From: a virus
Length of the DNA stretch: 64,000 nt
IMG/VR virus record: IMGVR_UViG_3300005518_000002
Coordinates: 17,860-81,859 of that record
Strand: one strand, 5' to 3'
A model generated the notes under the pieces. The model was given only the letters and a program-made list of their open reading frames with translations. It was not told the origin of the DNA and did no database searches. Made by a program: the position numbers and the translations under genes. This document shows, in pieces, positions 12,601 to 45,742 of the stretch; position 1 is the stretch's first letter; every line of letters starts with the position of its first letter.

Positions 12601-12698
12601 CTGTCACTCGCCATCGTCACCCGGCGCCCGTGGGCCTTCTGGACGTGCTGGCCACGGCGGTGCATGGCCACTCGGTGATCAGAGCCGTGCATGACCAT
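9657..12698 (-). CDS. Fusion: 2H phosphoesterase + MuF-like minor head domain + capsid maturation protease
   Basis: LHCTLFF and WVAHICAAY (two Hx[T/C] motifs); DKNTCKPC...CQGGSRCRG MuF-like Cys motif; EGIETGDGR, GVSVD, RAATVVDIPAF, VSGDWR protease region. Start may be 12692 or 12614. Confidence 0.75.
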   Translation of the reverse strand: MVMHGSDHRVAMHRRGQHVQKAHGRRVTMASDSSHLSGCMIALMPTVADAKRLAIKGGEKAEDLHCTLFFVGDDAELWTPEQRQELISSMTMLAQELDGPVSAKVFGVSHWNAGGESPSWVWSVGDAEPEPAVQLGGSLSFAHILATEALEYMHNHPTLPAQHTPWVAHICAAYTGDLTLAKELEKRLGEVTFDRIRISFADEDTDIPLTAALTAAAAPLRRNLTPLEEASRWDFAAHQKDWTEAVADALSSWQEVKLSWRREIRQQITSAGGISPQISVDTTAAAETLYHRMLLLAQQAGEAQQREAEEQGVTVPEWTLDSLTAALSGSDILRGVASMRASIMGNRLVQSARSRLAALFGSGRDSEELADDVDGALDELSDASDEEAIGAAMTGAQNTGRMAVLMVAPLGQYVASEALDKNTCKPCISIDGMEFVSRQDAMEAYPSGGSGYAKCQGGSRCRGTLLAVWGGLDDSVTADGGIMSATEALVEEGTMPWHTVQGHSGCPSSEPWAVVKDSDGSVAGCHASEQEANDQLAALYAAESSGEMTTEADLGAKPSEGTKKDKRIKENKYGEEAGVVVTEAEQELTSGPVELEGKTAPWRGPLTVEGIETGDGREFDTDSLTWADLPLPLRWNKEDSHGGEPHTVAVNVGNITKIWREGSLVMGEGLLDLGDEDGQRVHDKIKGQFLRGVSVDVDSIKDADMELVWPDMPDGEGGEEADLFEMLFASPEKIVFHRGRIRAATVVDIPAFAEAYIALLDEEGAVLAGGERIGALRASRTPRPVFTGPVLRASGSGWAPPVTWFQDPALSVPTGITVDNEGRVYGHAALWGTCHIGQAGVCVTPPHEEDHPYFMTGEIVCADDSRVSVGQITVGTGHAPISYNAHAASDHYDNTGAAVADVVVGNDAHGIWVAGAVRPGADSSRVHELRGAGQVSGDWRRIGGQLRLVGLLAVNTPGFPVPKLRTSVKAGSQFALVASGIPHLSNQVREDQLDKWAYARVMDIMRRRVHGEG

Positions 12699-15269: not shown

Positions 15270-15361
15270 GACTGCCTCCTTTCATAGCGCCAGACGAGGT
15301 ACAGCACGACACCGACGACAACGCCGGAGCCGAGCAGGGCACCGATCATCTCCAGGATCAT
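15266..15361 (-). CDS. Small membrane protein, 31 aa
   Basis: MILEMIGALLGSGVVVGVVLYLVWRYERRQS; ATGA overlaps on both sides. Confidence 0.55.
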   Translation of the reverse strand: MILEMIGALLGSGVVVGVVLYLVWRYERRQS

Positions 15362-15954
15362 GACGCCGTCCACATCTGGAACAGGTACGTGTCGGGGTGG
15401 TCGTACTCCGGCTGCCAGAGCTCGTGCTTCAGATCCGTCCAGCCTGCCGCCAGGAGCATGTCTTTGACGTCCTGCCAGCCCCAGCCCCAGTAGTGCTCGG
15501 GATTGCGCGTGTGGTTCTCCCCGCACGGCGTGGTGAGGAGGAGGTGCTTCGCCCTGTCCCGGATGGCGCGCAGCAGCGCGTCAGGATCCTCCACGTGCTC
15601 CAGGGTCTCGGAGCAGAGGAACATGTCGACCGCGGGGATCCGGGCCACCGTTTCCTCGATCGGTCCGGAGTAGTAGTACCCACGGACTCCCGGCGGGGGG
15701 AGAACGAGATCCCCCACATGGACGTCGCGCCAGGCGTGGGTGCAGTTCTGAATGATCGCGGCATCTCCGCAGGACAGATCGGCGATCGTCTGCGCCCCGG
15801 TTTCCGCGGCAAACCGGCCGAGCAGCTGGGAGGTTTTGGCCACCCGCTCCAGATGGTCCGGCCACCAGGTGTGGTCGTAGGTGCGGTGGTAGATGCGGGC
15901 GCGCTCTTCATCGGTGTAGAACGGGCGGATCTGCCAGCGGGTCATGACCAGCAC
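15358..15954 (-). CDS. Class I SAM-dependent methyltransferase
   Basis: IADLSCGDA motif I; CSETLEHVEDPDALL; LLLTTP. Confidence 0.8.
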   Translation of the reverse strand: MLVMTRWQIRPFYTDEERARIYHRTYDHTWWPDHLERVAKTSQLLGRFAAETGAQTIADLSCGDAAIIQNCTHAWRDVHVGDLVLPPPGVRGYYYSGPIEETVARIPAVDMFLCSETLEHVEDPDALLRAIRDRAKHLLLTTPCGENHTRNPEHYWGWGWQDVKDMLLAAGWTDLKHELWQPEYDHPDTYLFQMWTAS

Positions 15955-19375: not shown

Positions 19376-20632
<1,257 letters not shown>

Positions 20633-20691: not shown

Positions 20692-21741
20692 TCACGCAGA
20701 CGCCAGCCATTCGGGATGAGCCAGGGTCCAGGCAACAGTCTTGGCCATGGAGTCGTCCAGACTGATCGGCGCGCGCCAGCCGAGGTCAGCAATCTTGGAG
20801 CCGTCCAGTGCGTAGCGCAGATCATGGCCGGGGCGCGAGGAGTGGAAACTCTCCATCTTGATCTCCGGGGGCCGACGGGCCTGGAGACCGGCCAGACGCA
20901 TCCATTCGTAGATCATGCCTACCAGGTCGAGATTATTGACCTCCCTGTCCCCCACGATGTGGAACCGGGGCGGCCTGCGCGCGCCGCCCGCGTAGGGGAC
21001 CATGTCGACTTTCTCGTCCAGAACCTGGCGAGCGAGGTAGAGCCAGGCGTCCGCGAGGTTGCGCGCGTGGAGGTAGAAACGGGAGCCCGGGGTCCCGTCC
21101 GGCGCGCAGTGCACGATGACCGGCACACTACGCATGATCTTGCTCATGGTCATCGGCACGAACTTCTCGGGATCCTGCATCTCCCCGACGATGTTCATCG
21201 TATTCGTGATGACCACCGGCACACCGTAGGTGCGCCAGTAGCTGAAGCAGATCGCCTCCTGCGCAGCCTTGCTGGCGCTGTAGGGATTGGACGGTGCGAG
21301 CGTTTCCCACTCCTTGTGCCGGTGGTCGCCGTAGGCCGGACCGTAGACCTCGTCCGTGCTCATCTGGAGGAAAATCTTCGGCTTGTGCCGCCGGGCCAGC
21401 TCCAGCACGTTGAGCATCAGCGAGGTGTTGTTCAGGGTGAAGCCGACGGGATCTTCAATCGACCGGTCCACGTGGCTCTCCGAGGCGACGTTCATGAACA
21501 CCTCGCAGCCCTCCAGCGCAGCGTGGAGACTCATGGGCGCGGGGGCCTGCATGTCCCAGTGGACGATGGTCACGCGCCGGGCCCACTTGTCGTCACCGCA
21601 GGTGCTCGAAGCGATGCGCTCCGGCATGCCCTTGTGCTGGAACGAGACAGAGCAGACGATCTCCCAGTCCGTCTCCATGAGCAGGTGGCGCAGGACGTGC
21701 GAGCCGACGAAGCCACCGGCTCCGGTGAGGAACGCCTTCAT
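20692..21741 (-). CDS. rmlB: dTDP-glucose 4,6-dehydratase-like SDR
   Basis: GAGGFVG, ASESHVDRSI, STDEVYG, PSNPYSASKA, RPGHDLRYALD. Confidence 0.85.
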   Translation of the reverse strand: MKAFLTGAGGFVGSHVLRHLLMETDWEIVCSVSFQHKGMPERIASSTCGDDKWARRVTIVHWDMQAPAPMSLHAALEGCEVFMNVASESHVDRSIEDPVGFTLNNTSLMLNVLELARRHKPKIFLQMSTDEVYGPAYGDHRHKEWETLAPSNPYSASKAAQEAICFSYWRTYGVPVVITNTMNIVGEMQDPEKFVPMTMSKIMRSVPVIVHCAPDGTPGSRFYLHARNLADAWLYLARQVLDEKVDMVPYAGGARRPPRFHIVGDREVNNLDLVGMIYEWMRLAGLQARRPPEIKMESFHSSRPGHDLRYALDGSKIADLGWRAPISLDDSMAKTVAWTLAHPEWLASA

Positions 21742-21757
21742 GATCTTGCTCCTGTGG

Positions 21758-22501
21758 TCAGGGGTGGACGATCCAGTTCGGGTTGCCGGACGCCACCGAC
21801 GGGAACAGCGACGTGCCGACCGAGTGATAGCCGACGGCGAAGCGCCCCTGGAGCGGAGCCCAGCAGCTGTAGGCCCGCGCGGACTGCCGGACAGCGATCT
21901 TGGTTTCTTCCGCGTACTGCGCCGGGATGACGTACTGATCGCAAGGGATCTCGCCGGACAGTGCCTGCGACTCCCGCACCAGCCAGCGCACGTCCGGCCA
22001 CGCGGCAGGATTCGCCTCACGGAGCTGCTTGAGCGCGAGCCCGTACATGGAATGGGTGGGGTCAACGTCCTGCCAGTGCATGGTGTACATGCCTGCCGCG
22101 GGGTCCAGATCGTGGAAGTACTGGAGGACTGCCTTGGCCTGGTCGATGGTGGGGGAGTCGTGACGCAGGGCCGTGTTGAGATGGATCTCCCCGGGCACGG
22201 CGCCGAGCAGCGCGGCGGAGTCCATGAACTCCGCATCCCGGCTGGCGACGATGTCGTCCGGGGTCAGGGTGGCGTATCCCTCCCGGGCCAGGTCGTGCGT
22301 TCCGCCCCACCAGGAGTTCGCCGTCAGGCCATTGATCGAGTCGATGGCTGTGGTGGTGCGGCCGGGCGCACCGAGGATGAACGAAACCCGGCGGCCGACA
22401 CGGGCGTGGTACCAGGCAACCTGTCCCATGGACAGGCAGTCGTCGTCCGCATGGGGCGAGAGGAAGTACACCCGGCGCCCGGTCGGATTGATGATCGTCA
22501 A
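21758..22501 (-). CDS. PIG-L/LmbE family N-acetylsugar deacetylase
   Basis: SPHADDDCLSMG, RDAEF, HWQDVDPTH. Confidence 0.75.
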   Translation of the reverse strand: MTIINPTGRRVYFLSPHADDDCLSMGQVAWYHARVGRRVSFILGAPGRTTTAIDSINGLTANSWWGGTHDLAREGYATLTPDDIVASRDAEFMDSAALLGAVPGEIHLNTALRHDSPTIDQAKAVLQYFHDLDPAAGMYTMHWQDVDPTHSMYGLALKQLREANPAAWPDVRWLVRESQALSGEIPCDQYVIPAQYAEETKIAVRQSARAYSCWAPLQGRFAVGYHSVGTSLFPSVASGNPNWIVHP

Positions 22502-23398: not shown

Positions 23399-24292
23399 TC
23401 AGCGAGTGACGCCCTTGGTTGTCTCCCGGAACTCCTGCGCCCGCTTGATCTCTTCCCGCTCGCTCCCGCAGTTGACCATGGCCGTGCGCATGTAGCTGAC
23501 GACGCTGATGCGCTCCGCCCCGCAGTCCGGGCAGGCCGAGGTGCGCGTCACCCCGCAGGCGCAGACGATGGCCGTGTTGCCGTGCCACTGGTGCGCGTCC
23601 ATGAGGATCAGGTCGCCGTCCTGTAGATCCACGGCCACCCGGTACTCCGGGAAGACGAAGACTCCCCCGGTGTACTCCCCCCGGCGCAGCGTGAAGATCG
23701 TGCTGAAGCCCTTGTCCAGATCACCCTTGTCCGTGTGCACGCCGGTCGGGTACGTGTTGTTCACCGTGATCGTGGTAAACGGGGTACCCGGCACCACCCA
23801 GTCATCGTGCGTCCGGCCGATCTCCTCCATCTGCGCCTGCCAGCGGTCCGGCACGTGGATGCTCATCTGCTCGGAGACCTGACGGAGCAGCGGATGCAGC
23901 GCCTGCCACTCCGGGAGGTGGCGACCGGTCCACTGGGTGAGGCGGCAGAAGTTGAAGGCGTTGGTCGGGTCAGCCGAACCGATCATCGAACTGGCAAGGT
24001 TCTTGGCATAGGTGCGCTTCTGTTCTCCGACCTTGACCCTGCGGGTGGCACCGGCCAGGCCCCGGTTGTCCGTACGTACGCTGCGCAGCGAGTGCAGGAT
24101 CTCGTACTGCTCGGGAGTGACGGCTTCGCGCATGGCTCCGGGGAGGTACACGCACAGCGGCCGCCCGTCGGGCAGGAGAAGACGGGTGGGTCCGGTCATC
24201 AGCAGGCTGTACGCCCCGGACGTGATGACCTTGCCCTTCATCTCCTCCAGTGTCTGAGGGTCGATACGGCTGCGCAGCCGGGCACTGATCAC
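23399..24292 (-). CDS. TET/JBP-family 2OG-Fe(II) dioxygenase
   Basis: PFTTITVN, HTDKGD (HxD), DAHQWHGNT, RISVVSYMR. Confidence 0.85.
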   Translation of the reverse strand: MISARLRSRIDPQTLEEMKGKVITSGAYSLLMTGPTRLLLPDGRPLCVYLPGAMREAVTPEQYEILHSLRSVRTDNRGLAGATRRVKVGEQKRTYAKNLASSMIGSADPTNAFNFCRLTQWTGRHLPEWQALHPLLRQVSEQMSIHVPDRWQAQMEEIGRTHDDWVVPGTPFTTITVNNTYPTGVHTDKGDLDKGFSTIFTLRRGEYTGGVFVFPEYRVAVDLQDGDLILMDAHQWHGNTAIVCACGVTRTSACPDCGAERISVVSYMRTAMVNCGSEREEIKRAQEFRETTKGVTR

Positions 24293-24873
24293 GAGCGCAC
24301 TCCGTCCGTGAGGAATCCGAGAGCGGGGATGTCCTGCACCCGTTCAGCCATGCAGCCGGGCTCCACCAGATGCGTGCTGGTCATGGAGTGGAAGTCGATG
24401 CCCCCGTCAGCCGCTGCCCACTCCGCCAGGTTGTACGCGCGGGTCTGGGCTCCCTTGCGCCAGCTGTAGTTCTGGGACGTGCCCCGCTGCGCGCAGCGAT
24501 GATCCAGGACATCGTCGTCCGCATACAGGTAGAGCAGGTGGACCCGCACTCCCGCAGCCGTCAGCCGGGACAGGAAGGGACGCGTGGCCAGCCGGGCTCC
24601 CTCCCCCAGGGCGAAGTCGACCGGGGTGCGCAGCAGGAAGTCCGAGGCACGGAAGGAGATGTCCATGGCCAGGCTGTCCGTGCCGGGATGCTGCTGACGG
24701 GGCACTCCGAGTTCGAGCCCGTGCAGGGCTCCGCTGTTCATGGAGCGCAGCAGCGTGTGCGGCACGGGCGGACCCTTGACGACTTCCATGTCCCAGGGCA
24801 GGCGCAGGTAGCGCATCAGCGTGGACTTGCCGACGCCGGGTGCTCCGCAGATGTACAGCAGGTCTTTGATCAC
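24289..24873 (-). CDS. P-loop kinase (hydroxymethyluracil-DNA kinase-like)
   Basis: GAPGVGKST, GTDSLAM, GEGARLA, RCAQRG..Q..SWRKG. Confidence 0.8.
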   Translation of the reverse strand: MIKDLLYICGAPGVGKSTLMRYLRLPWDMEVVKGPPVPHTLLRSMNSGALHGLELGVPRQQHPGTDSLAMDISFRASDFLLRTPVDFALGEGARLATRPFLSRLTAAGVRVHLLYLYADDDVLDHRCAQRGTSQNYSWRKGAQTRAYNLAEWAAADGGIDFHSMTSTHLVEPGCMAERVQDIPALGFLTDGVRS

Positions 24874-25718
24874 AGTGGTCCTCCGACGATCCAGAAGCAG
24901 GTCGTGCCGTCCCGGCGCTTCCACCAGTCCGGCGCAAGCTGGTCCAGATGGTGGGCGACCTTTCCCTCATAGGTGGGGTGCAGGACGATGCCGTCCAGCG
25001 TGTGGGGCTGCCGGTCACCGTAGGCATAGACGCCTGTGCCGTGCAGGTCGATGTGCTCGTAATCATCCCAGACCAGACCCATGCGCAGCAGCCGCGCGCG
25101 CATCCACTCCCGCCGGTCCGGGCCTATGCCGATCAGCTTGACCTCCACGTCGCTGCGCTTGTGGGCGATCAGTCCGGTGAGGATGCCGGTCGCGGTGTTC
25201 GCCGACCCGAACGGGATCACCAGCGTGCGCACCTCCAGCGGCAGGTTGGCGACCTGTTCGGCCACGGGACCGTGGAACGCCATGAGCTCCACAGCACTGG
25301 CGTCCGGCGGGGTGGTGATGCCGTACTCCAGGAGATAGGCCGAGCCGTCCCTCCGCACGAGCTCCCGGGCTGCGCGCTGCAAGGCCGGGTTGTACCCCAC
25401 GCCGATGAAATCGAAGTCCGCTCCGGCCGCCTGAGCAATCTGCGGAGAGGGGTGGCGGAAGGCAGTCGACGGACGGGTGCCCCCGTAGATCACGAGGCAG
25501 TCCATGTCCAGCTCCCGCGCCGTGATGGAGACCATGGCCGCCTGCGGGCTGAGCACGCTGCACGCGGTGACCACCCGGGTGTAGCCGAGGGCGGACGCGC
25601 GGCGGAGCAGGTGCTGGCAGGCACGGAGCTTGGATCCGTTGATGCCGTGCTGTCCGGTGTAGAGATCTTCCCGCTTGAGCTGGAGTCCGCCGCGCAGCTG
25701 TACGGGGGTCAGATCCAC
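24870..25718 (-). CDS. PLP-dependent enzyme (fold II; ACC deaminase/Cys desulfhydrase-like)
   Basis: LTPV...KREDL...NGSKLR, SPQ, VIPFGSANT, LHPTYEGK; GTG start at 25718. Confidence 0.8.
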   Translation of the reverse strand: MDLTPVQLRGGLQLKREDLYTGQHGINGSKLRACQHLLRRASALGYTRVVTACSVLSPQAAMVSITARELDMDCLVIYGGTRPSTAFRHPSPQIAQAAGADFDFIGVGYNPALQRAARELVRRDGSAYLLEYGITTPPDASAVELMAFHGPVAEQVANLPLEVRTLVIPFGSANTATGILTGLIAHKRSDVEVKLIGIGPDRREWMRARLLRMGLVWDDYEHIDLHGTGVYAYGDRQPHTLDGIVLHPTYEGKVAHHLDQLAPDWWKRRDGTTCFWIVGGPL

Positions 25719-26785
25719 CGGATCTCCCGGCGCCCGAAGCTGCCCTGCGCCACGGCGGACTCGAAGCCATTGGCGAAGCAGGGCCACTCCTCCGTCATGT
25801 TGATCACTTCTCCGTGTTCGAGGAACCAGTTCTGCTTGACCGGCACGCAGCCGGGGTCCAGCGGACTGTCCTCCAGGAGGAGCCGGGGCGGGAATGCGGT
25901 GCGCCGGGCCTCCCACAGCAGATCGAACCTCCGCCCGAACTTGATCTCTCCGTGGCGGATGCGGTCGTACAGCATGTCGTTGTACACACCGGGGTAGCGC
26001 CGGTTCGGCTTGTGCCAGCTCTTGAAGGTGCACAGCGCACTCTCCAGGCTGAGGTAGCCCAGCGCACGGTCGTCCCAGCCGAGCGTGCGCACCAGGTCCC
26101 GTGCGTCCCCCAGAAGCCGGGCACCCTCGGATTCGAGCTTCCTGATCATTCCCGGGGAGTAGCGCCCGCCGTAGCTGCCGAGCTGGTGGTCACTGATCCA
26201 GCCCTCGTGTCCGGACACCAGGCACAGGCCGTTGCGGTGGGAGCGGGATCCGGAGATGTCCTGGAGCATCAGCGTGTCCGCGTCGGGCACCGGCAGGCCG
26301 AGGATGCGCAGGTACTCCAGGTAGCTCCAGGCCGAGAGCCGTCCCATGGTCGGAATGGCGAGAGCACGCTCCCAGCAGCTGTCCCAGTCACCCTTGCGCC
26401 AGTAGCGGGCCTGTCCCGCTCCGGTCAGCGCACGGTACCCGGCGCAGGCCCGGGGGAACTTGGCCTTGTGGTAGCGGCGGTCGGTGTCCCACTGGAGCGC
26501 GCCCCAGTGCTCGTTGAGAAAGGCGACGGCCTTGTCCGAGTCCTCCGGCCGGGGCGCAGCCCCGAACAGCAGCAGCGTCGTGACGGGGTTCTGCGTGTTG
26601 CCGTTGAGGAAAGCGAGCCAGGCCCGCTGCTCCTCGTCGAGGTCCAGCTCCCGGGCGACGTGCGGCAGCACGTAATGCACACCGCCGGGGAAGGACTGGT
26701 ACTTCAGGGACCAGGCGTAGAAGCGCAGGAAGATCTCCCTCCGGTACTCGGGCTTGCGGAAGTCAGCGCCGTGCTCAGGATTCAT
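25709..26785 (-). CDS. Amino acid:DNA transferase (aGPT-Pplase2-like)
   Basis: NGNTQNP, DTDRRY, GRLSAWSYLEY, SRSHRNGL, LESALCTFKSWH...RYPGVY.DM. Confidence 0.8.
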   Translation of the reverse strand: MNPEHGADFRKPEYRREIFLRFYAWSLKYQSFPGGVHYVLPHVARELDLDEEQRAWLAFLNGNTQNPVTTLLLFGAAPRPEDSDKAVAFLNEHWGALQWDTDRRYHKAKFPRACAGYRALTGAGQARYWRKGDWDSCWERALAIPTMGRLSAWSYLEYLRILGLPVPDADTLMLQDISGSRSHRNGLCLVSGHEGWISDHQLGSYGGRYSPGMIRKLESEGARLLGDARDLVRTLGWDDRALGYLSLESALCTFKSWHKPNRRYPGVYNDMLYDRIRHGEIKFGRRFDLLWEARRTAFPPRLLLEDSPLDPGCVPVKQNWFLEHGEVINMTEEWPCFANGFESAVAQGSFGRREIRWI

Positions 26786-27545
26786 CCGGACCCTCCGGGG
26801 AGTCCGCGTACTCCAGCGCGTTGCCCTCGTCGCTCAGTCCGTGCTGGTCGATCACCCGCGCGGTCACCCGGGCCGCGCACAGCAGGATCTCTCCCTGGCT
26901 GCGGGCGCCCAGATTCTCCCGGATCTTCATGATCAGCTGTCCGAGCTCGTCGGCCTGCGCACTGGGCAGGGCGAGGACGATGTCCCGCACCCCCCGGCTG
27001 GCCATCGTCGTGGAGTCGTGTCCGCCGTGGGACGCAATACGCCGCTCCACGTCCTCCGGGGTGTCGTTCCAGGACGTATCGGGGGTGGCATAGGGGGTCA
27101 CCTCGGCCTCCTCTCCTGAGGCTGCCTCCAGGGCTTCCAGGAGGTCCGCCACTTCGTCATCCGCGAAGCCGGTCCCCTCGTAGTCGCCCTCCAGCGCGGT
27201 GAGCAGCGCGGCGAGAGCTCCGGAGTCGTAGTCCCCGTCGTCGGCCGCCTTGTTGTCCACCAGGTTGATCTTTTTGGCGGTCCTGTCGTCGCACGTGATC
27301 ACCTCGCAGCGGGCTTCGGTCTCGCCCTCCTCGGCCAGCGCGATCATCGTGTGGTTGCCCGCCAGCACGACCAGCCCGGCGTCCGGCGTCTCGCGGACGA
27401 CCAGGGACCGGTACTGACCGTGCTCCCGCAGGCTTCCGCGGATCACGTCCACCCGGCCACGCTTGGCGTTGCCCGGGAAGGGGGTCAGCTCCCCCAGGGG
27501 GATGACATCGGTGCGGACATAGGTGCTCTTGGCTGTCTGGGTCAT
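26775..27545 (-). CDS. ParB-like protein
   Basis: LTPFPGNAKRG, SLREHGQYRSLVV, VLAGNHT, INLVDNK. Confidence 0.85.
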   Translation of the reverse strand: MTQTAKSTYVRTDVIPLGELTPFPGNAKRGRVDVIRGSLREHGQYRSLVVRETPDAGLVVLAGNHTMIALAEEGETEARCEVITCDDRTAKKINLVDNKAADDGDYDSGALAALLTALEGDYEGTGFADDEVADLLEALEAASGEEAEVTPYATPDTSWNDTPEDVERRIASHGGHDSTTMASRGVRDIVLALPSAQADELGQLIMKIRENLGARSQGEILLCAARVTARVIDQHGLSDEGNALEYADSPEGPDES

Positions 27546-27898
27546 CGGGCTTTCCTCGCTCCTCGGACGGTCCACTGGACAACATGATCCAGCTCATGGC
27601 GCACAACAGCGTCCAGCCGCTTCTGCGCCTCGGGACTCAGCAGTACGTACGAGCACCCGGTGCGCCGCTCGATGCGCTCCAGGACGATGTCCTCCAGCTG
27701 CTGGTTCGTCCTTCTGATCCAGTTGTCGGTATCCAGGCAACCAGCCTGGAACACCTGATATTCGAGCAGTCTGGTCTTCCGCTCCTGCTTCTTCCGCCGA
27801 CCGGCAGGGGTGAGTTCGTTCTCCCTGATCAGGAAGACGGCCAGACCGAAAAACGTCAGGGTGGTCACGATGAGGCCGATCACCGTTTCAGCGTTCAC
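27542..27898 (-). CDS. Membrane-anchored hypothetical protein
   Basis: GTG start; N-terminal hydrophobic helix. Confidence 0.5.
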   Translation of the reverse strand: MNAETVIGLIVTTLTFFGLAVFLIRENELTPAGRRKKQERKTRLLEYQVFQAGCLDTDNWIRRTNQQLEDIVLERIERRTGCSYVLLSPEAQKRLDAVVRHELDHVVQWTVRGARKAR

Positions 27899-30103: not shown

Positions 30104-33100
30104 TCACTTGGCGGAGATTTCTCCCCAGTTGTGGCCCGGCTTCGAGAGATCGCACAGGATCGGCACATCCCTCCATTCCCAGGTGAAAGCGTCCTTGATC
30201 TCTGCGCCGACTTCCGCCGCCAGGTTCTCGGGTACCGAGAACACGAACTCGTCGTGGACCCAGCCCCTCAGGTACGCCCGGTACTCGGGGTGGCGGTCCA
30301 TCAGGCGGAGCAGCACCTCACAGGTGATGTCCCGCGCCCCGCCCTGGCCCATCAGCGCGGGAGCCACCGTGTACGCCCACTTCGGGTCACAGCGCATCAG
30401 GCGCCCGAATCCGTTGTCGAGCAGTTCCCCGTTCGCCCCCTTGGCCCGTACGTCGTCGCGCCATTCCATCAGCCGGGGGAACCGGGCCTCCATTCCGTTG
30501 ACGAAGGCATAAACGATTTTCGGGTCCGCACCGTCTTCGATCATCCGCCGGGCCCCGAGACCGTAGTTCCAGCCGTGACCCCGGGCCTTCGCATCCTGCC
30601 TGCTGATTCCGAGCATGTCCGCGATCAGCTGGTGCGCGTCCTTCTGTGTGCCGTCCTCCTCGAACCCGAACAGCGCCATGTAACCCGGGTCCTGGCAGTG
30701 CCCGGCAATCGCCCGCATGTCGACCTGCGCCAGGTCGCAGGCCATCAGCACGTCCCCGTCGTCCGCCTCGAAGATCTCCCGCTCCACGTGGCGGCCGCCG
30801 TGCTTCCCGTAGACGGTCATGCCCGGTTCGGTGACCGAGCCCCGGCCGCTGGCCTGGCGCATGGACACCTTCGGGTGCACGCGCCCCTCGGGCGTCAGGT
30901 ACTTCTGCGCGGTCTGGTAGACGGTGCGGGTGGTGGTGACCACGCGCATCAGCTCCAGCGCCCGCTTCAGCTCCGCAGGGCACCGCGGGTGCTCCGCCAC
31001 CCGGTCCAGCGTGTCGGCCGCCGTGCTCAGCCTGCCGTTCTCGGTCTTCGGGGGCTGGGTGACGCCGTGCTGCTTCCACAGGTCCGTGAGCCAGGCGATC
31101 CCCTCCGTGGTGGCGAGAGGGGAGCTGAACGGCTCCCTGACGGCCTTGCGTGCCTTCCCCCGCCCCCGCATCACCTCCCGGGACAGCGGGAGCCCGTAGC
31201 CCTCGCTGAGCTCTTTGAGGGCTGCCTGCTTCTTCTCCTCCCCGTCCCGCAGCCGCTGGTTCAGCAGCTCCGTGTTGACCTTGAACCCGTTGAGCGTCAT
31301 CCGCCCCATGAGGGGGAGGATCCTGTGCTCGCGCCGGGTGTAGTCGTCCGAGGGCAGGATCCCGCGCACCGCCCGGGAGGCTTCAAGATCGCCCCGCAGG
31401 TAGTCGTTGTACTCAGAGTCATCTTTCGGGATCTTGTCGAACCCGCCGTGCTTGCGCGCCAGAACCCGGATGTCGTTGGTCTTCCCGGCCACCCCGTAGC
31501 GCTGAGCCACATGATCCAGATCGTACTCGTCCACCGACGACTTGCCCCGGCTCCTCGGGGGGTGCGCCTGCCGGGCGAGAGGTTCGGTGTCGACCGCCTT
31601 GCGGGCGAACGCGTCGAAGTCCATCCGGTGCCAGTGCGCGAGTGCCGGGCCGTCGAACCCGAGGATGTTGTGCCCGTAGACCTCCGGTGCCCGGGAGATC
31701 ATTTCCACCAGTTCCGCGGGGGGCACGCCCGTCCTCGAATTGCCGTGCTGGTCGATCACTCCGGCAAGGCGCACGAAGCCCTCCCCGTAGGTGAACGCGG
31801 CGGACGCGTCAGCGGTCTCCAGGTCGAACCCGATGGGGCCCGAGAGGTCGATTTCCACGGGGGGTGCGGGGTCCGCAAAAGGATCTACGGAGAGGTCGAA
31901 ATCAAGATCGTCCCCAAGGGCGTTCCAAGATCGGGTACCGTCAGTACCGTCAGCGCCGTTAAGTCCTCGTGATGGCTCATTTTTTCTGGTTAACCGGGCT
32001 GACGGTACTGACGGTACCTGATCTTGGTCCAGCTCTGTGACGTGCATTTTTTCATTTTTCGCTTGTTCAGTGTTCAACGACTTTTCTCCCTCCAGAATTT
32101 TTTCTGCGCCCGTTTTGTACCCATTCTCGCGACCGGCCGCGGGACCCTCCGACGGACCCCGGAAAGGATCATCAGGACAGTCCGTGCAGTCGTCCCCGGG
32201 AAGATCGTCCGGGGTGAATTTCAGCCCCCTCCAGGCGTAGTAGGTCGACCCGAGAGGAACGGACATTCCGGACGGCCGGGAGAGCCCCGACTGCTTTTTG
32301 ATCTTCTTCCTGTCGACCGGATTCTGCGACACCAGGTCGTGTCCCCCGAACCGGCTCACGAAGGTTTTGTCCCCCCATTCCTTCTGTCCCTTGTCCTTGA
32401 TGTAGGAGTTGAAATCCGCGTACAGCTCCTTTGCGATCACGTGTGAGGCGTCGTCGAACTCCAGCCGGTCCTGGATGTACGACATGATCAGATCGGAGGA
32501 CCGGCGCCATTCCTGGGTGTCCTTGTCCACCCGGTCCGGAGGAGGGGGCATGATCGTACCCAGCTCGTACCAGCGCCGGGCACCGGCCGCCATCCACGCC
32601 AGAACGGCCTCCTGGATCTTCGGATCGGTCTTGCAGCGGTCACGGAGCGTAGCGTCACCGAGCCGGTCGTTCGGCCCTTTCACCTCTTCCTGCGTCTTGC
32701 GGTAGGTGTAGGGCCAGCGCACCAGCGCCAGGCGCCTCCAGGTGCCGTGGTCCGTCTCGTCGACCACCGGCTTGTGGTTGGAGTTGATGAACAGGCTGTG
32801 CGTCGCCTTGAAGGTCACCGGGTCCTGCCGGATGCGCCGGGCCGTCACGTACGCCGTACCGGCCAGCTTCTTCGCCCGGTTGGTGTCCAGGCGCCGGGCC
32901 TCCGGCGTCTCCTCCAGCACCGCGTAGCGCGCCCCCATCAGATCCATCATTTCGGTGGGGTGGTTGTCGTTCGCGTTGCCGAGCATCACCCGGTCGCTCA
33001 CCTGCACGTGGTACTTCCCGGCTGCTTTGGCGCACGCGTCGTAGATCGTGCTCTTGCCGTTGGCCCCGCCGCCCTGACAGATCAGGATCAGATCGTCCGG

Positions 33101-34402
33101 AGTCATGTGCCCGGTGATCGCCTGTCCCTCCCTCAGCTGGAACCACTCCACCACGTCACCCGGCAGGGCCAGCAGCGCCTTGTCCCAGTCCGCGTGGTGT
33201 GCGTCCTTGACGAAGTCCACTCCCGCAATCTTCGTCATCAGCTGGTCGGGATCATGCGGCGTCAGCACCCCGGTCTTCAGGTCCACCACACCGTTGGGGC
33301 AGTTGAGCAGATCCGGATCGCCGTCGAAGCTCTCCGCGTCGCACTCCAGCGTTCCCTTCGCCAGCCGGATCACCGCACCCACCCGGCTCGCGCTCAGCAC
33401 GCCCCGCCAGCCGTCCACCGCCGCACCCAGGTCCCTGCCCGTGCCGCTGTGCTGCGCGTCCACGGCCCGGTGGTAGTGCTCCAGTGCCCAGCGGCTCACC
33501 GTCTCCACGACAGTGACCTCCGTGGCCTCCTTCCACACCTTGCCGGTCCACTGCATCCACCCCATGCCCGCAGCCCAGCGGAAGCGGCCGTCCAGCTCCT
33601 CGTCGCACACCGTGTCGGCCAGCACCCTGTCCGTGAACGTGGCGTCGCGCGATTCGTTGGGCAGCTGGTCCATGCTGGCCTGGCCGAGGACTTCCAGCGT
33701 CCCTCCGGCATGGAAGAAGTCGTCCACGCCCTTCACGGCCGTGCCGTCCACCTCGGCCGGGATGATCAGGTACCGGACCGTGGCACCCTTGCTCTCCAGC
33801 CAGCGGCCGAGCCGCTGCATGGCCAGAAGAACGTTTCTCTTCTCCCGGGCGTCCGCGTCGAAACAGACCACGACCGTCCGGTCCATCAGGGGAATGTCTT
33901 CCCAGTCCCCGAGCGTTCCCATCTTGCTGCGCCAGTTGAACACCCCGGTCAGCGTGATCACTGCCTTGCCCAGGGAGGCCAGGCAGTCGGCCTTCTTCAG
34001 CCCTTCCGTGATCCACAGCGGTTCGCTCGGGTCGCGCACCCCGTCGCTCACGGGCGGGGGGACGTCCAGCCGGTTGGGCACGCCGGTCTGGCTGGCGTAC
34101 TTCTGGAGCTTGCCGCCGGGGGCCTCCTGCGGAATGGCAGGCTTGAACTGGCAGCCGATCTTCTCGCCGGTCACCCGGTACATCGGGATGAGCAGCCCCG
34201 GGAACGCCATCGGGTCCCGCCATGCCCAGCGCGGCACCCGCAGGTCGTGCAGCCGGGCCTGGTCGTCGTCCGAGCCGTACAGGGTCTCGTACCCGCGGGC
34301 GCGGCGCACCTCCTCGCTGATGCAGCTCTCCTCCAGCTCCCGCAGGTGCCCGGCCATCAGCTCCTGGGCAGCTGCCACGGGTGGTTCCTCGGTGGTCGTC
34401 AC
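30104..34402 (-). CDS. Fusion: DUF3854 TOPRIM primase + D5/SF3 helicase + 3'-5' exonuclease + family A DNA polymerase
   Basis: WITEGLKKAD, VCFDAD, KGVDD; LNCPNGVVDL, GGGANGKST; FDLET, HNILGFD; DLAQVDMR, RQDAKARGHGWNYG, WVHDE; one 1432-aa frame. Confidence 0.9.
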   Translation of the reverse strand: MTTTEEPPVAAAQELMAGHLRELEESCISEEVRRARGYETLYGSDDDQARLHDLRVPRWAWRDPMAFPGLLIPMYRVTGEKIGCQFKPAIPQEAPGGKLQKYASQTGVPNRLDVPPPVSDGVRDPSEPLWITEGLKKADCLASLGKAVITLTGVFNWRSKMGTLGDWEDIPLMDRTVVVCFDADAREKRNVLLAMQRLGRWLESKGATVRYLIIPAEVDGTAVKGVDDFFHAGGTLEVLGQASMDQLPNESRDATFTDRVLADTVCDEELDGRFRWAAGMGWMQWTGKVWKEATEVTVVETVSRWALEHYHRAVDAQHSGTGRDLGAAVDGWRGVLSASRVGAVIRLAKGTLECDAESFDGDPDLLNCPNGVVDLKTGVLTPHDPDQLMTKIAGVDFVKDAHHADWDKALLALPGDVVEWFQLREGQAITGHMTPDDLILICQGGGANGKSTIYDACAKAAGKYHVQVSDRVMLGNANDNHPTEMMDLMGARYAVLEETPEARRLDTNRAKKLAGTAYVTARRIRQDPVTFKATHSLFINSNHKPVVDETDHGTWRRLALVRWPYTYRKTQEEVKGPNDRLGDATLRDRCKTDPKIQEAVLAWMAAGARRWYELGTIMPPPPDRVDKDTQEWRRSSDLIMSYIQDRLEFDDASHVIAKELYADFNSYIKDKGQKEWGDKTFVSRFGGHDLVSQNPVDRKKIKKQSGLSRPSGMSVPLGSTYYAWRGLKFTPDDLPGDDCTDCPDDPFRGPSEGPAAGRENGYKTGAEKILEGEKSLNTEQAKNEKMHVTELDQDQVPSVPSARLTRKNEPSRGLNGADGTDGTRSWNALGDDLDFDLSVDPFADPAPPVEIDLSGPIGFDLETADASAAFTYGEGFVRLAGVIDQHGNSRTGVPPAELVEMISRAPEVYGHNILGFDGPALAHWHRMDFDAFARKAVDTEPLARQAHPPRSRGKSSVDEYDLDHVAQRYGVAGKTNDIRVLARKHGGFDKIPKDDSEYNDYLRGDLEASRAVRGILPSDDYTRREHRILPLMGRMTLNGFKVNTELLNQRLRDGEEKKQAALKELSEGYGLPLSREVMRGRGKARKAVREPFSSPLATTEGIAWLTDLWKQHGVTQPPKTENGRLSTAADTLDRVAEHPRCPAELKRALELMRVVTTTRTVYQTAQKYLTPEGRVHPKVSMRQASGRGSVTEPGMTVYGKHGGRHVEREIFEADDGDVLMACDLAQVDMRAIAGHCQDPGYMALFGFEEDGTQKDAHQLIADMLGISRQDAKARGHGWNYGLGARRMIEDGADPKIVYAFVNGMEARFPRLMEWRDDVRAKGANGELLDNGFGRLMRCDPKWAYTVAPALMGQGGARDITCEVLLRLMDRHPEYRAYLRGWVHDEFVFSVPENLAAEVGAEIKDAFTWEWRDVPILCDLSKPGHNWGEISAK
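31934..32018. repeat. 29-bp inverted repeat beside AT-rich tract; candidate origin
   Basis: GGTACCGTCAGTACCGTCAGCGCCGTTAA (31934-31962) / TTAACCGGGCTGACGGTACTGACGGTACC (31990-32018). Confidence 0.8.
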
Positions 34403-35218: not shown

Positions 35219-35331
35219 AGGCCGGACAGGACACGACCCCGTGCCCCTGCGCGTGCAGTCCGGGAACCCGGTGCAGCTGCACCGGCTGTGTCTGCGAGGA
35301 GCACCACCCGGAGGAAACCGATGAGCGCTGA
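35215..35331 (+). CDS. 38-aa Cys-rich metallothionein-like peptide
   Basis: MKAGQDTTPCPCACSPGTRCSCTGCVCEEHHPEETDER (GTG start); overlaps both neighbours. Confidence 0.5.
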   Translation: MKAGQDTTPCPCACSPGTRCSCTGCVCEEHHPEETDER

Positions 35332-37978
35332 CATGATCCGCCTGCGCGACTACCAGAACGAGTGCGTGGACAAGGTGATTGCCGCCTGGCTCACCAACAC
35401 CCAGCGTCCGGCCGTCGTGCTCCCGACCGGCTGTCATCGGGCGGGGCAACGCGTTCTCATGTACGACGGCTCCGTCTGCACTGTCGAGAACGTCCGGGCT
35501 GGTGATCGCCTCATGGGTCCTGACAGCACCCCTCGTGAGGTTCTGTCCCTGGCCCGGGGTACCGGACCCATGATGGAGGTCCGGCCGGTCAAAGGACGCC
35601 CCTGGGTGGTCAATGATGAGCACGTGCTGACTCTGGTCCGCACCGCAGCCGGGGGTAAATACCCCTCGGAGCAGGGGGGCGTGATCACCGACGTAGCGCT
35701 GCCGGACTGGTGGCAGTGGGCCCGGTACCGGAAGCACACCCATAAGATCTTCAGGGTGCCGGTCGACTTTCCCGCTCAGCCTGTGCCGGACCTCGATCCG
35801 TATTTTCTCGGAGTAGTGCTCGGAGATGGGTCACTGTCCGTCCGGCACCGGCTGTCGATCGCCACGGCGGACCCGGAGATCACGGAACTGTGCGAGCAGG
35901 TGGCACAGGACCACGGCCGACGGGGCGGGGGCAATCCCCTGGTGACAAAAATCCGTGCACTGGGACTGTGCCCGATCGCATGCGCAGACCGGTTCGTTCC
36001 GGAGATCTACAAACTGGGCAGCCGGAAGGTCCGGCTGGAGACCTTGGCCGGTCTGATCGACTCGGACGGAGCTCTGTCCGGGGACGGATACGACTTCGGA
36101 TCCAAGTCAGAACGGTTGGCCGATGACGTGGCGTTCATGGCCCGGAGTCTCGGGCTGGCTGCGTACGTAACCAAGCGTCCGAGCGGCCATTACCGGGTGT
36201 CGGTCTCCGGGGACTGCACAGTCATCCCGGTGCGGATCAGGCGTAAGAAAGCACCAGCACGGACGGCAGTCAAGGATGTGCTGCGTACGGGATTCGATGT
36301 GATCCCCACGGGCACTGTGGAGCCGTATTACGGGTTCCACCTGGACGGCGACCACCGATACCTCCTGGACGATTTCACGGTGACGCACAACTCGGGCAAG
36401 ACTGTGATCTTCTCCCATCTGGCGGACGACTGGCTCAACCACCGCGGCCGGGGCACCCGCGTCGTGATCCTGGTGCACCGTGATGAGCTGGCCGACCAGG
36501 CGATCCGCAAGCTGCACGACGTCGCACCCCACATGAGCGTCGGCAAGGTCAAAGCGGCGGACAACGACGTCCATGCCGACGTCATGGTCTGCTCCGTGCA
36601 GACCCTGGCCCGCCAGTCCCGTCTGGACCGGCTGATCAGCAGCCAGTACGCGTTCTCTCCCCCGGGAGAACCGGCTCCGCTGGAGCGGCCGATCGGACTG
36701 GTCATCGTGGACGAATGCCATCATGCCGCCGCACCCAGCTACCGCCGGATCATGGAACAGCTGGGCTGCTTCACCCTGGAGCCGGAAAATGCCTACGGCC
36801 ACTGCGCCGGTACCCGGGCGGTAGGCTTCACCGCCACCCTGGCCCGCGGTGACGGGGTGGGGCTGGGCTCCGTGTGGGACAGCGTGGCCTACACCCGCAC
36901 CACCCTGGAGATGATCCGGGACGGCTTCCTGACGGACGTCAAGGGGCGTAACGTCGATCTTGATTTCGACCTGTCGGGGGTCAAGACCTCCGCGGGCGAC
37001 TACCAGGCCAAGTCGCTCGGAGAGGCGATCGTCTCGGCCGACGGTCCGCGCAAGATCGCTGCCGCTGTCCTGGAGTACGCGGAGGACCGGCGCCCGATCG
37101 TCTTCACGCCCGACGTGGCCAGCGCCTATCTCACCGCGGCGGAGCTGGACAAGCTCGGCATCCTGTGTGACGTGGTGGAGGGCAACACCAGCCGCGAGGA
37201 GCGCCAGCTGATCTACAAGAAGTACCGCACCGGGGAATTGCAGGCCGTGGTCAACTGCATGGTGCTGACCGAGGGAGCCGACTTCCCCTGGGCGGACTGC
37301 GCGGTGATCGCCCGTCCGACCAGGAGCGCCCCGCTCTACATTCAGATGGTCGGCCGTGTGCTGCGTCCCTGGCCCGGCAAGTCCGACGCGCTGGTGCTCA
37401 ACGTGATCGGCCAGGGCGGCACCATCTCCACCCTGATCGACCTGGACCCGGGCCTGGTCACCACGCCCCGGCCGGGGGAGTCACTGGCCGACGCCTACAC
37501 CCGGCAGGAGGAACGGGCGGACTCGAAGGTCCCCGCCGGATCACTCGCCTTCGAGCTCAAGTACCGCGACATGGACCTGTTCGCCGCCTCCAGCCAGGCG
37601 TGGCTGCGCACCCCCGGCGGGGTGATGTTCCTCCCCCTCGGACAGGGAGAGGTCTTCCTGTGGCCGGACGCAGAGGGCACCTGGGCGGTGTGCTTCGCCC
37701 CCACTCAGGGTCGCAAGTGGGTCCGCCTGCACCGGGAGCTTCCCCTCGGCCTGGCCATGGCATGGGCGGAAACCGAGGCGGGCGCGGCGGTCTTCGCCCT
37801 GTCGGCCAAGGACAAGCGCTGGCGCAAGGAGAAGGCCGACGCCAAGCAGATCGGCAAGGCCCGCTCGATGGGTATCGACGTCGGGCCCGACCCCCGCAAG
37901 GGGTCAGTGTCAGACGCCATCAGTACAGTGCTCGCGAGCTGGAAGTTCGATGAGCGCGTGAAGAAGGTCCAGGTATGA
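35321..37978 (+). CDS. SF2 DExH helicase interrupted by an intein
   Basis: LRDYQ, PTG|intein|SGKT, DECHH, GFTAT, LTEGADFP, QMVGRVLR. Confidence 0.92.
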   Translation: MSADMIRLRDYQNECVDKVIAAWLTNTQRPAVVLPTGCHRAGQRVLMYDGSVCTVENVRAGDRLMGPDSTPREVLSLARGTGPMMEVRPVKGRPWVVNDEHVLTLVRTAAGGKYPSEQGGVITDVALPDWWQWARYRKHTHKIFRVPVDFPAQPVPDLDPYFLGVVLGDGSLSVRHRLSIATADPEITELCEQVAQDHGRRGGGNPLVTKIRALGLCPIACADRFVPEIYKLGSRKVRLETLAGLIDSDGALSGDGYDFGSKSERLADDVAFMARSLGLAAYVTKRPSGHYRVSVSGDCTVIPVRIRRKKAPARTAVKDVLRTGFDVIPTGTVEPYYGFHLDGDHRYLLDDFTVTHNSGKTVIFSHLADDWLNHRGRGTRVVILVHRDELADQAIRKLHDVAPHMSVGKVKAADNDVHADVMVCSVQTLARQSRLDRLISSQYAFSPPGEPAPLERPIGLVIVDECHHAAAPSYRRIMEQLGCFTLEPENAYGHCAGTRAVGFTATLARGDGVGLGSVWDSVAYTRTTLEMIRDGFLTDVKGRNVDLDFDLSGVKTSAGDYQAKSLGEAIVSADGPRKIAAAVLEYAEDRRPIVFTPDVASAYLTAAELDKLGILCDVVEGNTSREERQLIYKKYRTGELQAVVNCMVLTEGADFPWADCAVIARPTRSAPLYIQMVGRVLRPWPGKSDALVLNVIGQGGTISTLIDLDPGLVTTPRPGESLADAYTRQEERADSKVPAGSLAFELKYRDMDLFAASSQAWLRTPGGVMFLPLGQGEVFLWPDAEGTWAVCFAPTQGRKWVRLHRELPLGLAMAWAETEAGAAVFALSAKDKRWRKEKADAKQIGKARSMGIDVGPDPRKGSVSDAISTVLASWKFDERVKKVQV
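35432..36391 (+). mobile_element. Intein (320 aa) with LAGLIDADG homing endonuclease, in Walker A
   Basis: Starts CHRAGQRVLMYDGS, block B VNDEHVL, LGVVLGDG and LAGLIDSDG, ends VTHN before Ser. Confidence 0.93.
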
Positions 37979-45288: not shown

Positions 45289-45540
45289 ATGACCACCACC
45301 AAGCGACCCAGGGGACGACCCCGTCCCATCGAGACGATCGAGCGGGACGAGAAGATCCTCAAGCTGCTCCAGCAGAGCGGATCGTTCACCCGCAATCAGA
45401 TCGCCGAAGCCCTGGGCCTGGACACCACCATCACCTACCTCTCCCTGGACCGGCTGCGCCGCCAGGGACGCGTCCGCAAGTGCGCGGGCACCGGCTCGAA
45501 CACCCTGTGGACGAGCGAGGCGAATGCCCCGTGCCCCTGA
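45289..45540 (+). CDS. Winged-HTH regulator with AT-hook-like RPRGRPR
   Basis: ILKLLQQSGSFTRNQIAEALGL...SLDRLRRQGRV. Confidence 0.7.
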   Translation: MTTTKRPRGRPRPIETIERDEKILKLLQQSGSFTRNQIAEALGLDTTITYLSLDRLRRQGRVRKCAGTGSNTLWTSEANAPCP

Positions 45541-45742
45541 TCACCGGACCTGCGGACGAGCAGGAAGAGGCGCTGGGACCGCGGGAGATCTGCGAGCTGG
45601 GAGAGATCTGCGTAAAGATGGCCCGGCAGCTGCGAGAAACGAGCGAGGCAGCGGCAGCCATCTTCAGATCGCTCCCCGCCGCGGGAGCCCTGCTGACGTC
45701 CCCGGACGCCATGCGCTGGACCCCCGGGGAAGGAGTTGCGCT

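Follow-up and report, generated by a model that had tools for sequence, protein, structure and literature searches.

Salmonella phage ViI makes 5-(2-aminoethoxy)methyl-deoxyuridine (5-NeOmdU) by a pathway in which 5-hydroxymethyluracil (5hmU) is produced before replication by a dUMP hydroxymethylase and is then tailored by kinases (gp67/gp243), an amino acid:DNA transferase (AADT; gp247), and a pyridoxal phosphate (PLP) decarboxylase (gp226), with no radical S-adenosylmethionine (SAM) isomerase (Lee et al., 2018, 2022). For several contigs of the IMG/VR database that carry T-hypermodification genes beside a Tet/JBP gene and no nearby 5-methylcytosine (5mC)-forming gene (sequences 22-25 of their Fig. 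2), Lee et al. (2022; PMC8989533) inferred that the Tet/JBP enzyme replaces the dUMP hydroxymethylase. O'Toole et al. (2026; PMC13229309) demonstrated by E. coli co-expression and in vitro reconstitution that phage 5mYOX enzymes of clade C1 are thymine dioxygenases, and that one subclass of T-dioxygenases requires a cognate ParB homolog for activity on double-stranded DNA (dsDNA). Here, we analyzed a 64,000-nucleotide stretch of a virus record from the same database, IMGVR_UViG_3300005518_000002 (bases 17860-81859 of the 81,859-bp record; G+C 66%; hereafter the window, whose numbering is used throughout), and compared with these systems a run of five overlapping genes at 23399-27545. The kind of pathway is already published: the locus belongs to the known ParB-dependent T-dioxygenase hypermodification clusters and joins to them a tailoring set of the ViI type. 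We consider it likely that the five genes constitute a self-contained, fully post-replicative thymine hypermodification operon.

The five genes are arranged in the following order of transcription:

27545-26775, minus strand: ParB-like protein, 256 aa (phrog_723, E=3.5e-42; open reading frame [ORF] 26775-27575)
26785-25709, minus strand: AADT (formerly aGPT-Pplase2), 358 aa (PF18724, E=3e-14; phrog_3271, E=1e-75)
25718-24870, minus strand: fold-type II PLP enzyme, 282 aa (PALP PF00291, E=2e-10; phrog_3650, E=1e-67; ORF 24870-26033)
24873-24289, minus strand: P-loop kinase of the Ploopntkinase3 clade, 194 aa (PF18751, E=1.3e-25; ORF 24289-24924)
24292-23399, minus strand: Tet/JBP Fe(II)/2-oxoglutarate (2OG) dioxygenase, 297 aa (Tet_JBP PF12851, E=5e-17)

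All five genes named in the original prediction were thus present in one overlapping run, and the ParB start at 27545 coincided with the upper boundary given there. Start choice was guided by ribosome-binding sites and by whether a start overlapped the stop of the preceding gene; the resulting overlaps were 11 nt for ParB/AADT, 10 nt for AADT/PLP, and 4 nt (GTGA) for both PLP/kinase and kinase/TET. Because of these 4-11-nt overlaps, the five genes show the pattern of a translationally coupled operon. The PLP gene starts at the GTG at 25718, overlapping the AADT stop; a 387-aa PLP ORF and a 211-aa kinase ORF were rejected in favor of internal starts (25718 and 24873), each of which has a ribosome-binding site and overlaps the stop of the gene before it. 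The coupled chain reaches two genes further upstream of ParB:

28199-27888, minus strand: MazG-like pyrophosphohydrolase, overlapping the next gene and coupled upstream of ParB
27898-27542, minus strand: membrane-like protein, 118 aa, overlapping the next gene and coupled upstream of ParB

This pair gave weak PF01503 and PF12643 matches, and a tblastn search of the related loci found the MazG-like gene only in the near-identical contig L009.

The dioxygenase matched Tet/JBP PF12851 with 62 bits against a cut-off of 34.9. Its HxD...H iron triad and 2OG-binding Arg (H186-x-D188, H237, and R261) were invariant in 71 homologs, down to 30% identity, and the close clade of the enzyme has a four-Cys insert (C244, C246, C254, and C257). 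The AlphaFold (AF2) model (predicted local distance difference test score [pLDDT], 94.5; predicted template modeling score [pTM], 0.91) displayed the TET jelly-roll fold, and its best matches in the Protein Data Bank (PDB) were NgTet1, CcTet, TET2, and CMD1 (E ~1e-12); the corresponding PDB search by sequence returned nothing useful for TET or AADT. The model contains an insert of lower confidence at approximately residues 71-100, and the nearly invariant C275 is followed by a C-terminal helix (residues 278-296). A C-terminal extension past the last conserved Cys was reported only in ParB-dependent T-dioxygenases (O'Toole et al., 2026; PMC13229309). Judged against the description of 5mYOX176 only, the enzyme here has both the C-terminal extension and the variable insertion domain of this clade C1 subclass, and by that analogy we infer that it is a ParB-dependent thymine dioxygenase. 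For this enzyme, 1621 homologs were found at E<=1e-5 in a 5.8-billion-protein collection, with more than 100 homolog clusters at 59-84% identity, many from 75-95-kb contigs, and 1468 representatives were found at E<=0.001 in a 50%-identity library.

Genes for other sources of the hydroxymethyl group were searched for in the complete genome and in 19 related phage genomes with the same dioxygenase, 13 of which were at least 90% complete; the ThyA, ThyX, C5-cytosine methyltransferase (C5-MTase), and radical SAM searches each detected their own family in control genomes. The complete 81,859-bp genome contained no gene of the ThyA family (the family of dUMP hydroxymethylases), ThyX, C5-MTase (PF00145), or radical SAM (PF04055), so that the earlier remark that no dUMP hydroxymethylase is seen in the window holds for the entire genome. 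A ThyA-like gene was found in none of the 19 related genomes (0/19), and a C5-MTase match (E<=0.001) in four, three of them above the Pfam cut-off; the one that was checked lay ~40 kb from the TET gene. Because ThyA-like, ThyX, and C5-MTase genes are absent, no source of a reactive C5-hydroxymethyl group other than the dioxygenase is apparent, and no substrate other than thymine is certain to be available; the missing genes support a predicted oxidation of thymine on DNA. The original prediction that TET makes hmU on DNA, as part of a post-replicative thymidine hypermodification, is accordingly backed by the absence of these genes in the genome and in most relatives, as well as by Lee et al. 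(2022; PMC8989533) and O'Toole et al. (2026; PMC13229309).

The same enzyme could instead act on 5mC made by a methyltransferase of the host or by an unrecognized one, in which case the kinase, AADT, and PLP enzyme would build a hypermodified cytosine. Phage TETs of clades A and B are 5mC dioxygenases, both 5mYOX97 and 5mYOX176 oxidize T and 5mC in vitro (O'Toole et al., 2026; PMC13229309), and Burke et al. (PMC8256090) saw a P-loop kinase and aGPT-Pplase in some C5-MT/TET contigs and proposed phosphorylation of 5-hydroxymethylcytosine; in the window itself, there is a small, weak class-I methyltransferase-like ORF at 15358-15954. However, PF00145 had no match in the complete genome or in 15 of the 19 related genomes and was far from TET where checked, C5-MTs occur on merely 6% of 5mYOX contigs (PMC13229309), and gp247 and gp226 of ViI, the homologs of the downstream enzymes, use 5hmU derivatives. 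A cytosine route therefore appears highly improbable.

We then considered the ParB-like protein, for which a Pfam search gave no match at E<0.01 and a PDB sequence search only a marginal match to Noc. Its AF2 model (pLDDT 85.5) comprised an N-terminal ParB/Srx nucleotide-binding-type domain (residues 8-142, confident), two helices, an acidic low-confidence linker (approximately residues 143-190), and a C-terminal helical hairpin (helices at 195-234), with no helix-turn-helix (HTH) DNA-binding domain in this architecture. The best PDB folds were B. subtilis, C. crescentus, and M. xanthus ParB and Noc, across ~140-150 residues; MxParB and CcParB are also the closest structural homologs of ParB176. 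The locus thereby resembles the 5mYOX176/ParB176 clusters of clade C1 (O'Toole et al., 2026; PMC13229309), which have a Tet/JBP enzyme with a C-terminal extension and a co-oriented ParB composed of a nucleotide-binding domain, a linker, and a C-terminal domain, with no DNA-binding domain. Clade C1 clusters further share with it the lack of a neighboring C5-MT, the linkage to a P-loop kinase and an AADT, and a metavirome origin. A PLP decarboxylase partner and actinophage hosts, both features of the present locus, are not mentioned in the main text of that study.

The two ParBs, likened here by description, differ in box II, which reads AGNHT in this protein and AGN(H/N)T in most relatives, as opposed to GERR; N26, S38, and N98 were invariant. 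Because AGNHT replaces GERR, the protein lacks two residues of canonical ParB CTPases, the catalytic Glu and the Arg that binds phosphate. Mutating CTP-binding-type residues of ParB176 left activation unimpaired (O'Toole et al., 2026; PMC13229309), and this ParB clade resembles a naturally occurring counterpart of those mutants.

A ParB homolog was encoded on the same strand as the dioxygenase in all 42 well-flanked related loci (those with at least 5 kb upstream and at least 4 kb downstream; 42/42), whatever their tailoring genes. Since ParB is constant across these loci, a functional pair of ParB and dioxygenase fits better than a link to packaging, and by analogy with ParB176 the protein here is a probable activator of the T-dioxygenase. 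The original prediction had ParB couple modification to packaging, which is the hypothesis of Iyer et al. (2013) as given in a quotation by Burke et al. (2021; PMC8256090); ParB would then mainly couple or target modification to DNA packaging, through parS/pac-site loading, rather than activate the dioxygenase. The position of the operon, immediately upstream of a TerS-like gene and about 4.5 kb from the large terminase gene TerL (18839-17451, minus strand), is in keeping with this idea, as is the presence of terminases in ~19% of 5mYOX contigs (PMC13229309). Nevertheless, 5mYOX176 needs ParB176 for T oxidation in E. coli and on dsDNA in vitro, where the packaging machinery is absent, and the 5mYOX-associated ParBs are, like the protein here, devoid of a DNA-binding domain (PMC13229309); a TerS-like homolog downstream was detected only in closer relatives, as against the constant pairing of ParB with the dioxygenase. 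With ParBs of this type shown to be T-dioxygenase activators, the packaging role has been superseded, and we regard it as improbable.

The TerS-like gene itself is as follows:

23375-22731, minus strand: 214-aa HTH protein lying 23 nt downstream of TET; possible small terminase

It matched phrog_645 and, below threshold, HTH_23; its homolog in Thermobifida phage P1312 lies immediately upstream of TerL, and Terminase_5 was found in 11% of the members of its ESM Atlas neighbor cluster. Homologs were located downstream of TET in most close relatives by tblastn. The predicted placement of the operon beside the small terminase is accordingly plausible yet weakly supported, as the identity of this HTH gene as TerS draws on the sub-threshold HTH_23 match, the P1312 homolog, and the Terminase_5 share; in the present genome, TerL is located ~4 kb beyond it.

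The kinase has an intact Walker A motif (GAPGVGKST) and matched only PF18751 (Ploopntkinase3), not PF18747 or PF18748. Among the assayed kinases, ViI gp243 belongs to PF18747 and M6 gp54 to PF18748, and PaMx11 gp49 matches generic P-loop families only. Because PF18751 was its sole match, the kinase falls outside the 5-hydroxymethyl-deoxyuridine (5-hmdU) DNA kinase families HMUD1/HMUD2 (PF18748/PF18747). It is 38% identical to both Prince gp4 and Vincenzo gp4, each of which matches PF18751. From the gene context, it is a putative 5hmU DNA kinase and may work like 5-HMUDK; in the literature, we found no evidence that the Ploopntkinase3 clade has been assayed on 5hmU-DNA.

The kinase also matched phrog_800, annotated as terminase small subunit, and we rejected this name as an annotation artifact because the demonstrated 5-hmdU DNA kinases M6 gp54 and PaMx11 gp49 bear the same label in RefSeq. 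An annotation error passed on between records is the probable origin of the label. In public databases, Vincenzo gp4, a homolog of the kinase, is likewise recorded as terminase small subunit. These three proteins are located as follows:

L090, 21686-22249: M6 gp54
L091, 19218-19787: PaMx11 gp49
L003, 2559-3152: Vincenzo gp4

For the AADT and PLP enzymes, ViI gp247 and gp226 are the nearest characterized homologs. The AADT matched PF18724 with 53.7 bits against a cut-off of 26.2, a family that ViI gp247 and M6 gp51 also match. By BLASTP, it was 27.7% identical to the serine:DNA transferase ViI gp247 (E=2.5e-21), and the glycine transferases (M6 and PaMx11) gave no significant hit; its identity was 51% to mycobacteriophage Prince gp3 and 48% to MONT_42 of Glutamicibacter phage Montesquieu. 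A maximum-likelihood (ML) tree grouped the PLP-linked AADTs with ViI gp247, MONT_42, and Prince gp3 (SH-aLRT 99), separate from AADTs linked to a flavin adenine dinucleotide (FAD) enzyme. The PLP enzyme was 30.4% identical to ViI gp226 (BLASTP, E=2.6e-39); its Lys30 aligned with K92 of ViI gp226 and K36 of M6 gp52, the surrounding GINGSKLR motif is identical in ViI gp226, and several more motifs are common to both.

ViI gp226 and M6 gp52 decarboxylate amino-acid-thymine conjugates only if the alpha-amine is free, and an N-linked glycine must first pass a radical SAM isomerase (Lee et al., 2022; PMC8989533). An M6-type route, consisting of N-glycine and this isomerase, was rejected on the ground that PF04055 had no match in the genome. 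Because the genome is without a radical SAM isomerase, the ViI logic of a side-chain-linked amino acid followed by decarboxylation is the best fit, and our best guess for the final base, by analogy, is a 5-NeOmdU-like one, i.e., 5-(2-aminoethoxy)methyl-dU or an analogue. The caveat attached to the original prediction, namely that the base cannot be read from sequence, was right and applies to this product too.

The pathway may alternatively hold only as far as the amino-acid conjugate, with the PLP enzyme then carrying out beta-elimination/replacement or deamination, or with another donor (Thr, Cys, Orn/Lys, or diaminopropionate) being used, which would give a base not yet described. The enzyme belongs to Pfam PALP, has homologs annotated as 1-aminocyclopropane-1-carboxylate (ACC) deaminase or threonine dehydratase, and is of low identity to characterized enzymes; donor specificity of Pplase2 shifts at 35% identity (PMC13458397), and relatives have extra genes of unknown function among AADT, PLP, and kinase. 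On the other hand, the sole two assayed members of the phage PLP family, ViI gp226 and M6 gp52, are decarboxylases (PMC8989533), and the Lys motif and further motifs are those of ViI gp226. We regard such a departure as possible but doubtful, and view with similar reserve the idea that the operon makes an uncatalogued thymine derivative (either a non-serine amino acid linked through its side chain and decarboxylated, or the product of a PLP reaction without decarboxylation) through its Ploopntkinase3 kinase.

Returning to the ViI-like reading, we propose the following pathway. The analysis established which genes are present, their order and coupling, their catalytic motifs and folds, and the absence of other 5hmU or 5mC sources; the enzymatic steps, the amino acid donor, and the base finally made are all predicted from these. 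The phage DNA would be replicated with ordinary dTTP. The Tet/JBP dioxygenase, switched on by its cognate ParB, would hydroxylate thymine at its C5-methyl group in duplex DNA to give 5hmU, the hydroxyl group of which would be phosphorylated by the P-loop kinase. The AADT would then replace the phosphate with an amino acid whose alpha-amine remains free, by analogy with ViI a serine attached through its side-chain oxygen. Finally, the PLP enzyme would decarboxylate the attached amino acid, leaving a positively charged amino-alkyl chain, as in 5-(2-aminoethoxy)methyl-dU or a close analogue. A modification of this kind would likely serve to shield the phage DNA from host nucleases. The modification could also be sparse and sequence-specific, serving an epigenetic-like or regulatory role in timing or packaging recognition instead of bulk anti-restriction, a possibility raised by O'Toole et al. 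(PMC13229309). Phage T-dioxygenases are sequence-selective (NTG/NTA for 5mYOX176) and oxidize <=25-35% of T (PMC13229309), and 45% of the T in this genome stands in a TG or TA context. Against this, a passage of Lee et al. (PMC8989533) describes related thymidine hypermodifications as replacing up to about half of T and protecting from host endonucleases, and we consider a sparse regulatory mark rather unlikely.

Several points weigh against the proposed thymine route. The membership of the dioxygenase in clade C1 derives from context and architecture rather than from a tree with assayed T-dioxygenases such as 5mYOX176, 185, and 177. The ParB here is without the GERR residues that are called largely conserved in 5mYOX-associated ParBs. 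The kinase clade, PF18751, differs from those of the assayed 5-hmdU DNA kinases compared. The AADT is merely 28% identical to ViI gp247, and Pplase2 enzymes at 35% identity use different donors (PMC13458397); the AADT tree was a quick ML tree with long branches, midpoint-rooted and without bootstrap. Moreover, because Cluster B3 phages have a 51%-identical AADT and no PLP enzyme, the AADT clade and the PLP enzyme are not strictly coupled.

ViI has the same succession of kinase, AADT, and PLP decarboxylase and an identical PLP-Lys motif, but its genes are scattered, its 5hmU is made before replication, and its gp243 kinase is of PF18747 rather than PF18751, in contrast to a dioxygenase predicted to act on DNA and one coupled operon here. 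Cluster B3 mycobacteriophages (Prince gp1-gp4) encode a ParB-like protein, a "thymidine hydroxylase", an AADT, and a kinase at the genome end beside the terminase, and their portal, protease, and capsid genes are similar to those here; identities were 51% for AADT, 38% for kinase, and 34% for ParB. They differ in having no PLP enzyme, in the order ParB-TET-AADT-kinase, and in a dioxygenase that is 27% identical (E=4e-6). In Montesquieu, P-loop kinases come after an overlapping AADT-PLP pair (48% and 38% identity), but the phage also has a thymidylate synthase/pyrimidine hydroxymethylase and aGPT-Pplase1, and no ParB or TET in the stretch examined; these two genes indicate a pre-replicative 5hmU route in that phage.

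Related loci were then sorted by the content of the slot between ParB and kinase (n = 84):

30/84 loci: AADT and PLP, as here
13/84 loci: AADT of a different clade and an FAD/DAO oxidoreductase (PaMx11 logic)
16/84 loci: AADT alone
4/84 loci: kinase alone
21/84 loci: none of the AADT/PLP/FAD/kinase sets

PLP-type (ViI logic) and FAD-type tailoring modules, each with its own AADT clade, were thus exchanged at one fixed ParB-kinase slot (examples are L013, L022, L023, L040, L043, L044, L051, L058, L092, and others versus L011-L037). Relatives have extra genes of unknown function inserted between AADT, PLP, and kinase, and this phage represents the minimal form. Extra ORFs without a Pfam match in PLP-type relatives are located as follows:

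L011, 4514-5563
L018, 5884-6420
L031, 4758-5459

Mycobacterium phage Vincenzo (Coopervirus; L003, 1-3152) encodes a 479-aa ParB fusion with a ParB domain confined to its first 145 residues, as well as a PF18751 kinase and a PLP enzyme that shares 42% identity with the one described here. A hidden Markov model search of its first 10 kb found no AADT or Tet/JBP, and the C-terminal 330 aa of its gp1 may hide a divergent partner.

Related dioxygenase loci were also found in assemblies of Streptomyces africanus, S. hazeniae, Microbispora, and Haloechinothrix. A stand-alone contig of 92,743 bp in the S. africanus NRRL B-24243 assembly matches a record of IMG/VR identically, and its tailoring module is of the FAD type. 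In S. hazeniae DSM 42041, a ParB-AADT-kinase-TET cluster lies in a 909-kb chromosomal contig (L094, 82-97 kb), pointing to an integrated prophage or a phage-like element that carries such a modification system.

With five coupled genes in a complete genome, the operon offers a clean minimal example of what would be a fully post-replicative route to hypermodified thymine in actinomycete phages, and its chemistry is directly testable, as the assembly of the culturable S. africanus NRRL B-24243 holds a closely related complete phage contig. Three points go beyond the published outline and leave the overall picture of the field unchanged: PLP- and FAD-type modules, each with its own AADT clade, are swapped at a fixed ParB-kinase slot; GERR has been lost naturally in a ParB clade, consistent with CTP-binding residues being dispensable for activation; and the kinase clade lies outside the Pfam families of the assayed kinases compared.

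The record has 120-bp terminal repeats and was rated 100% complete by CheckV; its source is an uncultured soil/rhizosphere actinomycete phage. Frame statistics (GC3/GC2) and family searches assigned the minus strand, from ~34.9 kb down to the window start, to replication, modification, packaging, and structural genes, in the order primase/D5-helicase/PolA giant protein, modification operon, TerS-like gene, PIG-L-like and NAD epimerase genes, lysin, TerL, and portal/MuF-protease/major capsid. The structural genes are similar to their Cluster B mycobacteriophage counterparts. Minus-strand terminator-like sites flank the region from ~30.0 to 19.2 kb, their number being near the chance level, and a promoter scan found none. 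The DNA of the operon was found again in metagenomes of rhizosphere and soil sequenced in several studies; it was present in 20 DNA sequencing runs (rhizosphere, soil, and one freshwater metagenome), and no RNA run was among those listed. The neighboring features are as follows:

30104-34402, minus strand: giant single ORF of 1432 aa with DUF3854 (primase-like), D5_N/DUF5906 helicase, and family A DNA polymerase domains
35288-37978, plus strand: ResIII/DEAD helicase, split near its N-terminus by a Hint and LAGLIDADG homing-endonuclease intein
19376-20548, minus strand: Rpf-type transglycosylase, NlpC/P60, and LysM protein between the modification/TerS block and TerL
20692-22501 (minus strand), 45524-46372 (plus strand), 52542-53138 (plus strand), and 53608-54519 (plus strand): sugar-handling genes (PIG-L-like deacetylase, epimerases, and glycosyltransferases of family GT2)
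9657-12698, minus strand: MuF/protease head protein, 1013 aa

Among the sugar-handling genes, the PIG-L-like deacetylase (a weak match, E=1e-4) and an NAD epimerase/dehydratase lie immediately downstream of the TerS-like gene, and the plus-strand region holds two GT2 glycosyltransferases and a second epimerase. Many relatives retain the NAD epimerase; for the PIG-L gene, the only occurrences found were in near-identical copies of this phage. Glycosylation of the virion or the cell wall is a possible role of these genes, DNA glycosylation a conceivable one, and the deacetylase, the epimerases, and the two glycosyltransferases may decorate the modified base further. The position of the Rpf/NlpC-P60/LysM lysin is kept in relatives. 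Residues 31-211 of the MuF/protease head protein match a PHROG named RNA ligase (E=6.5e-23).

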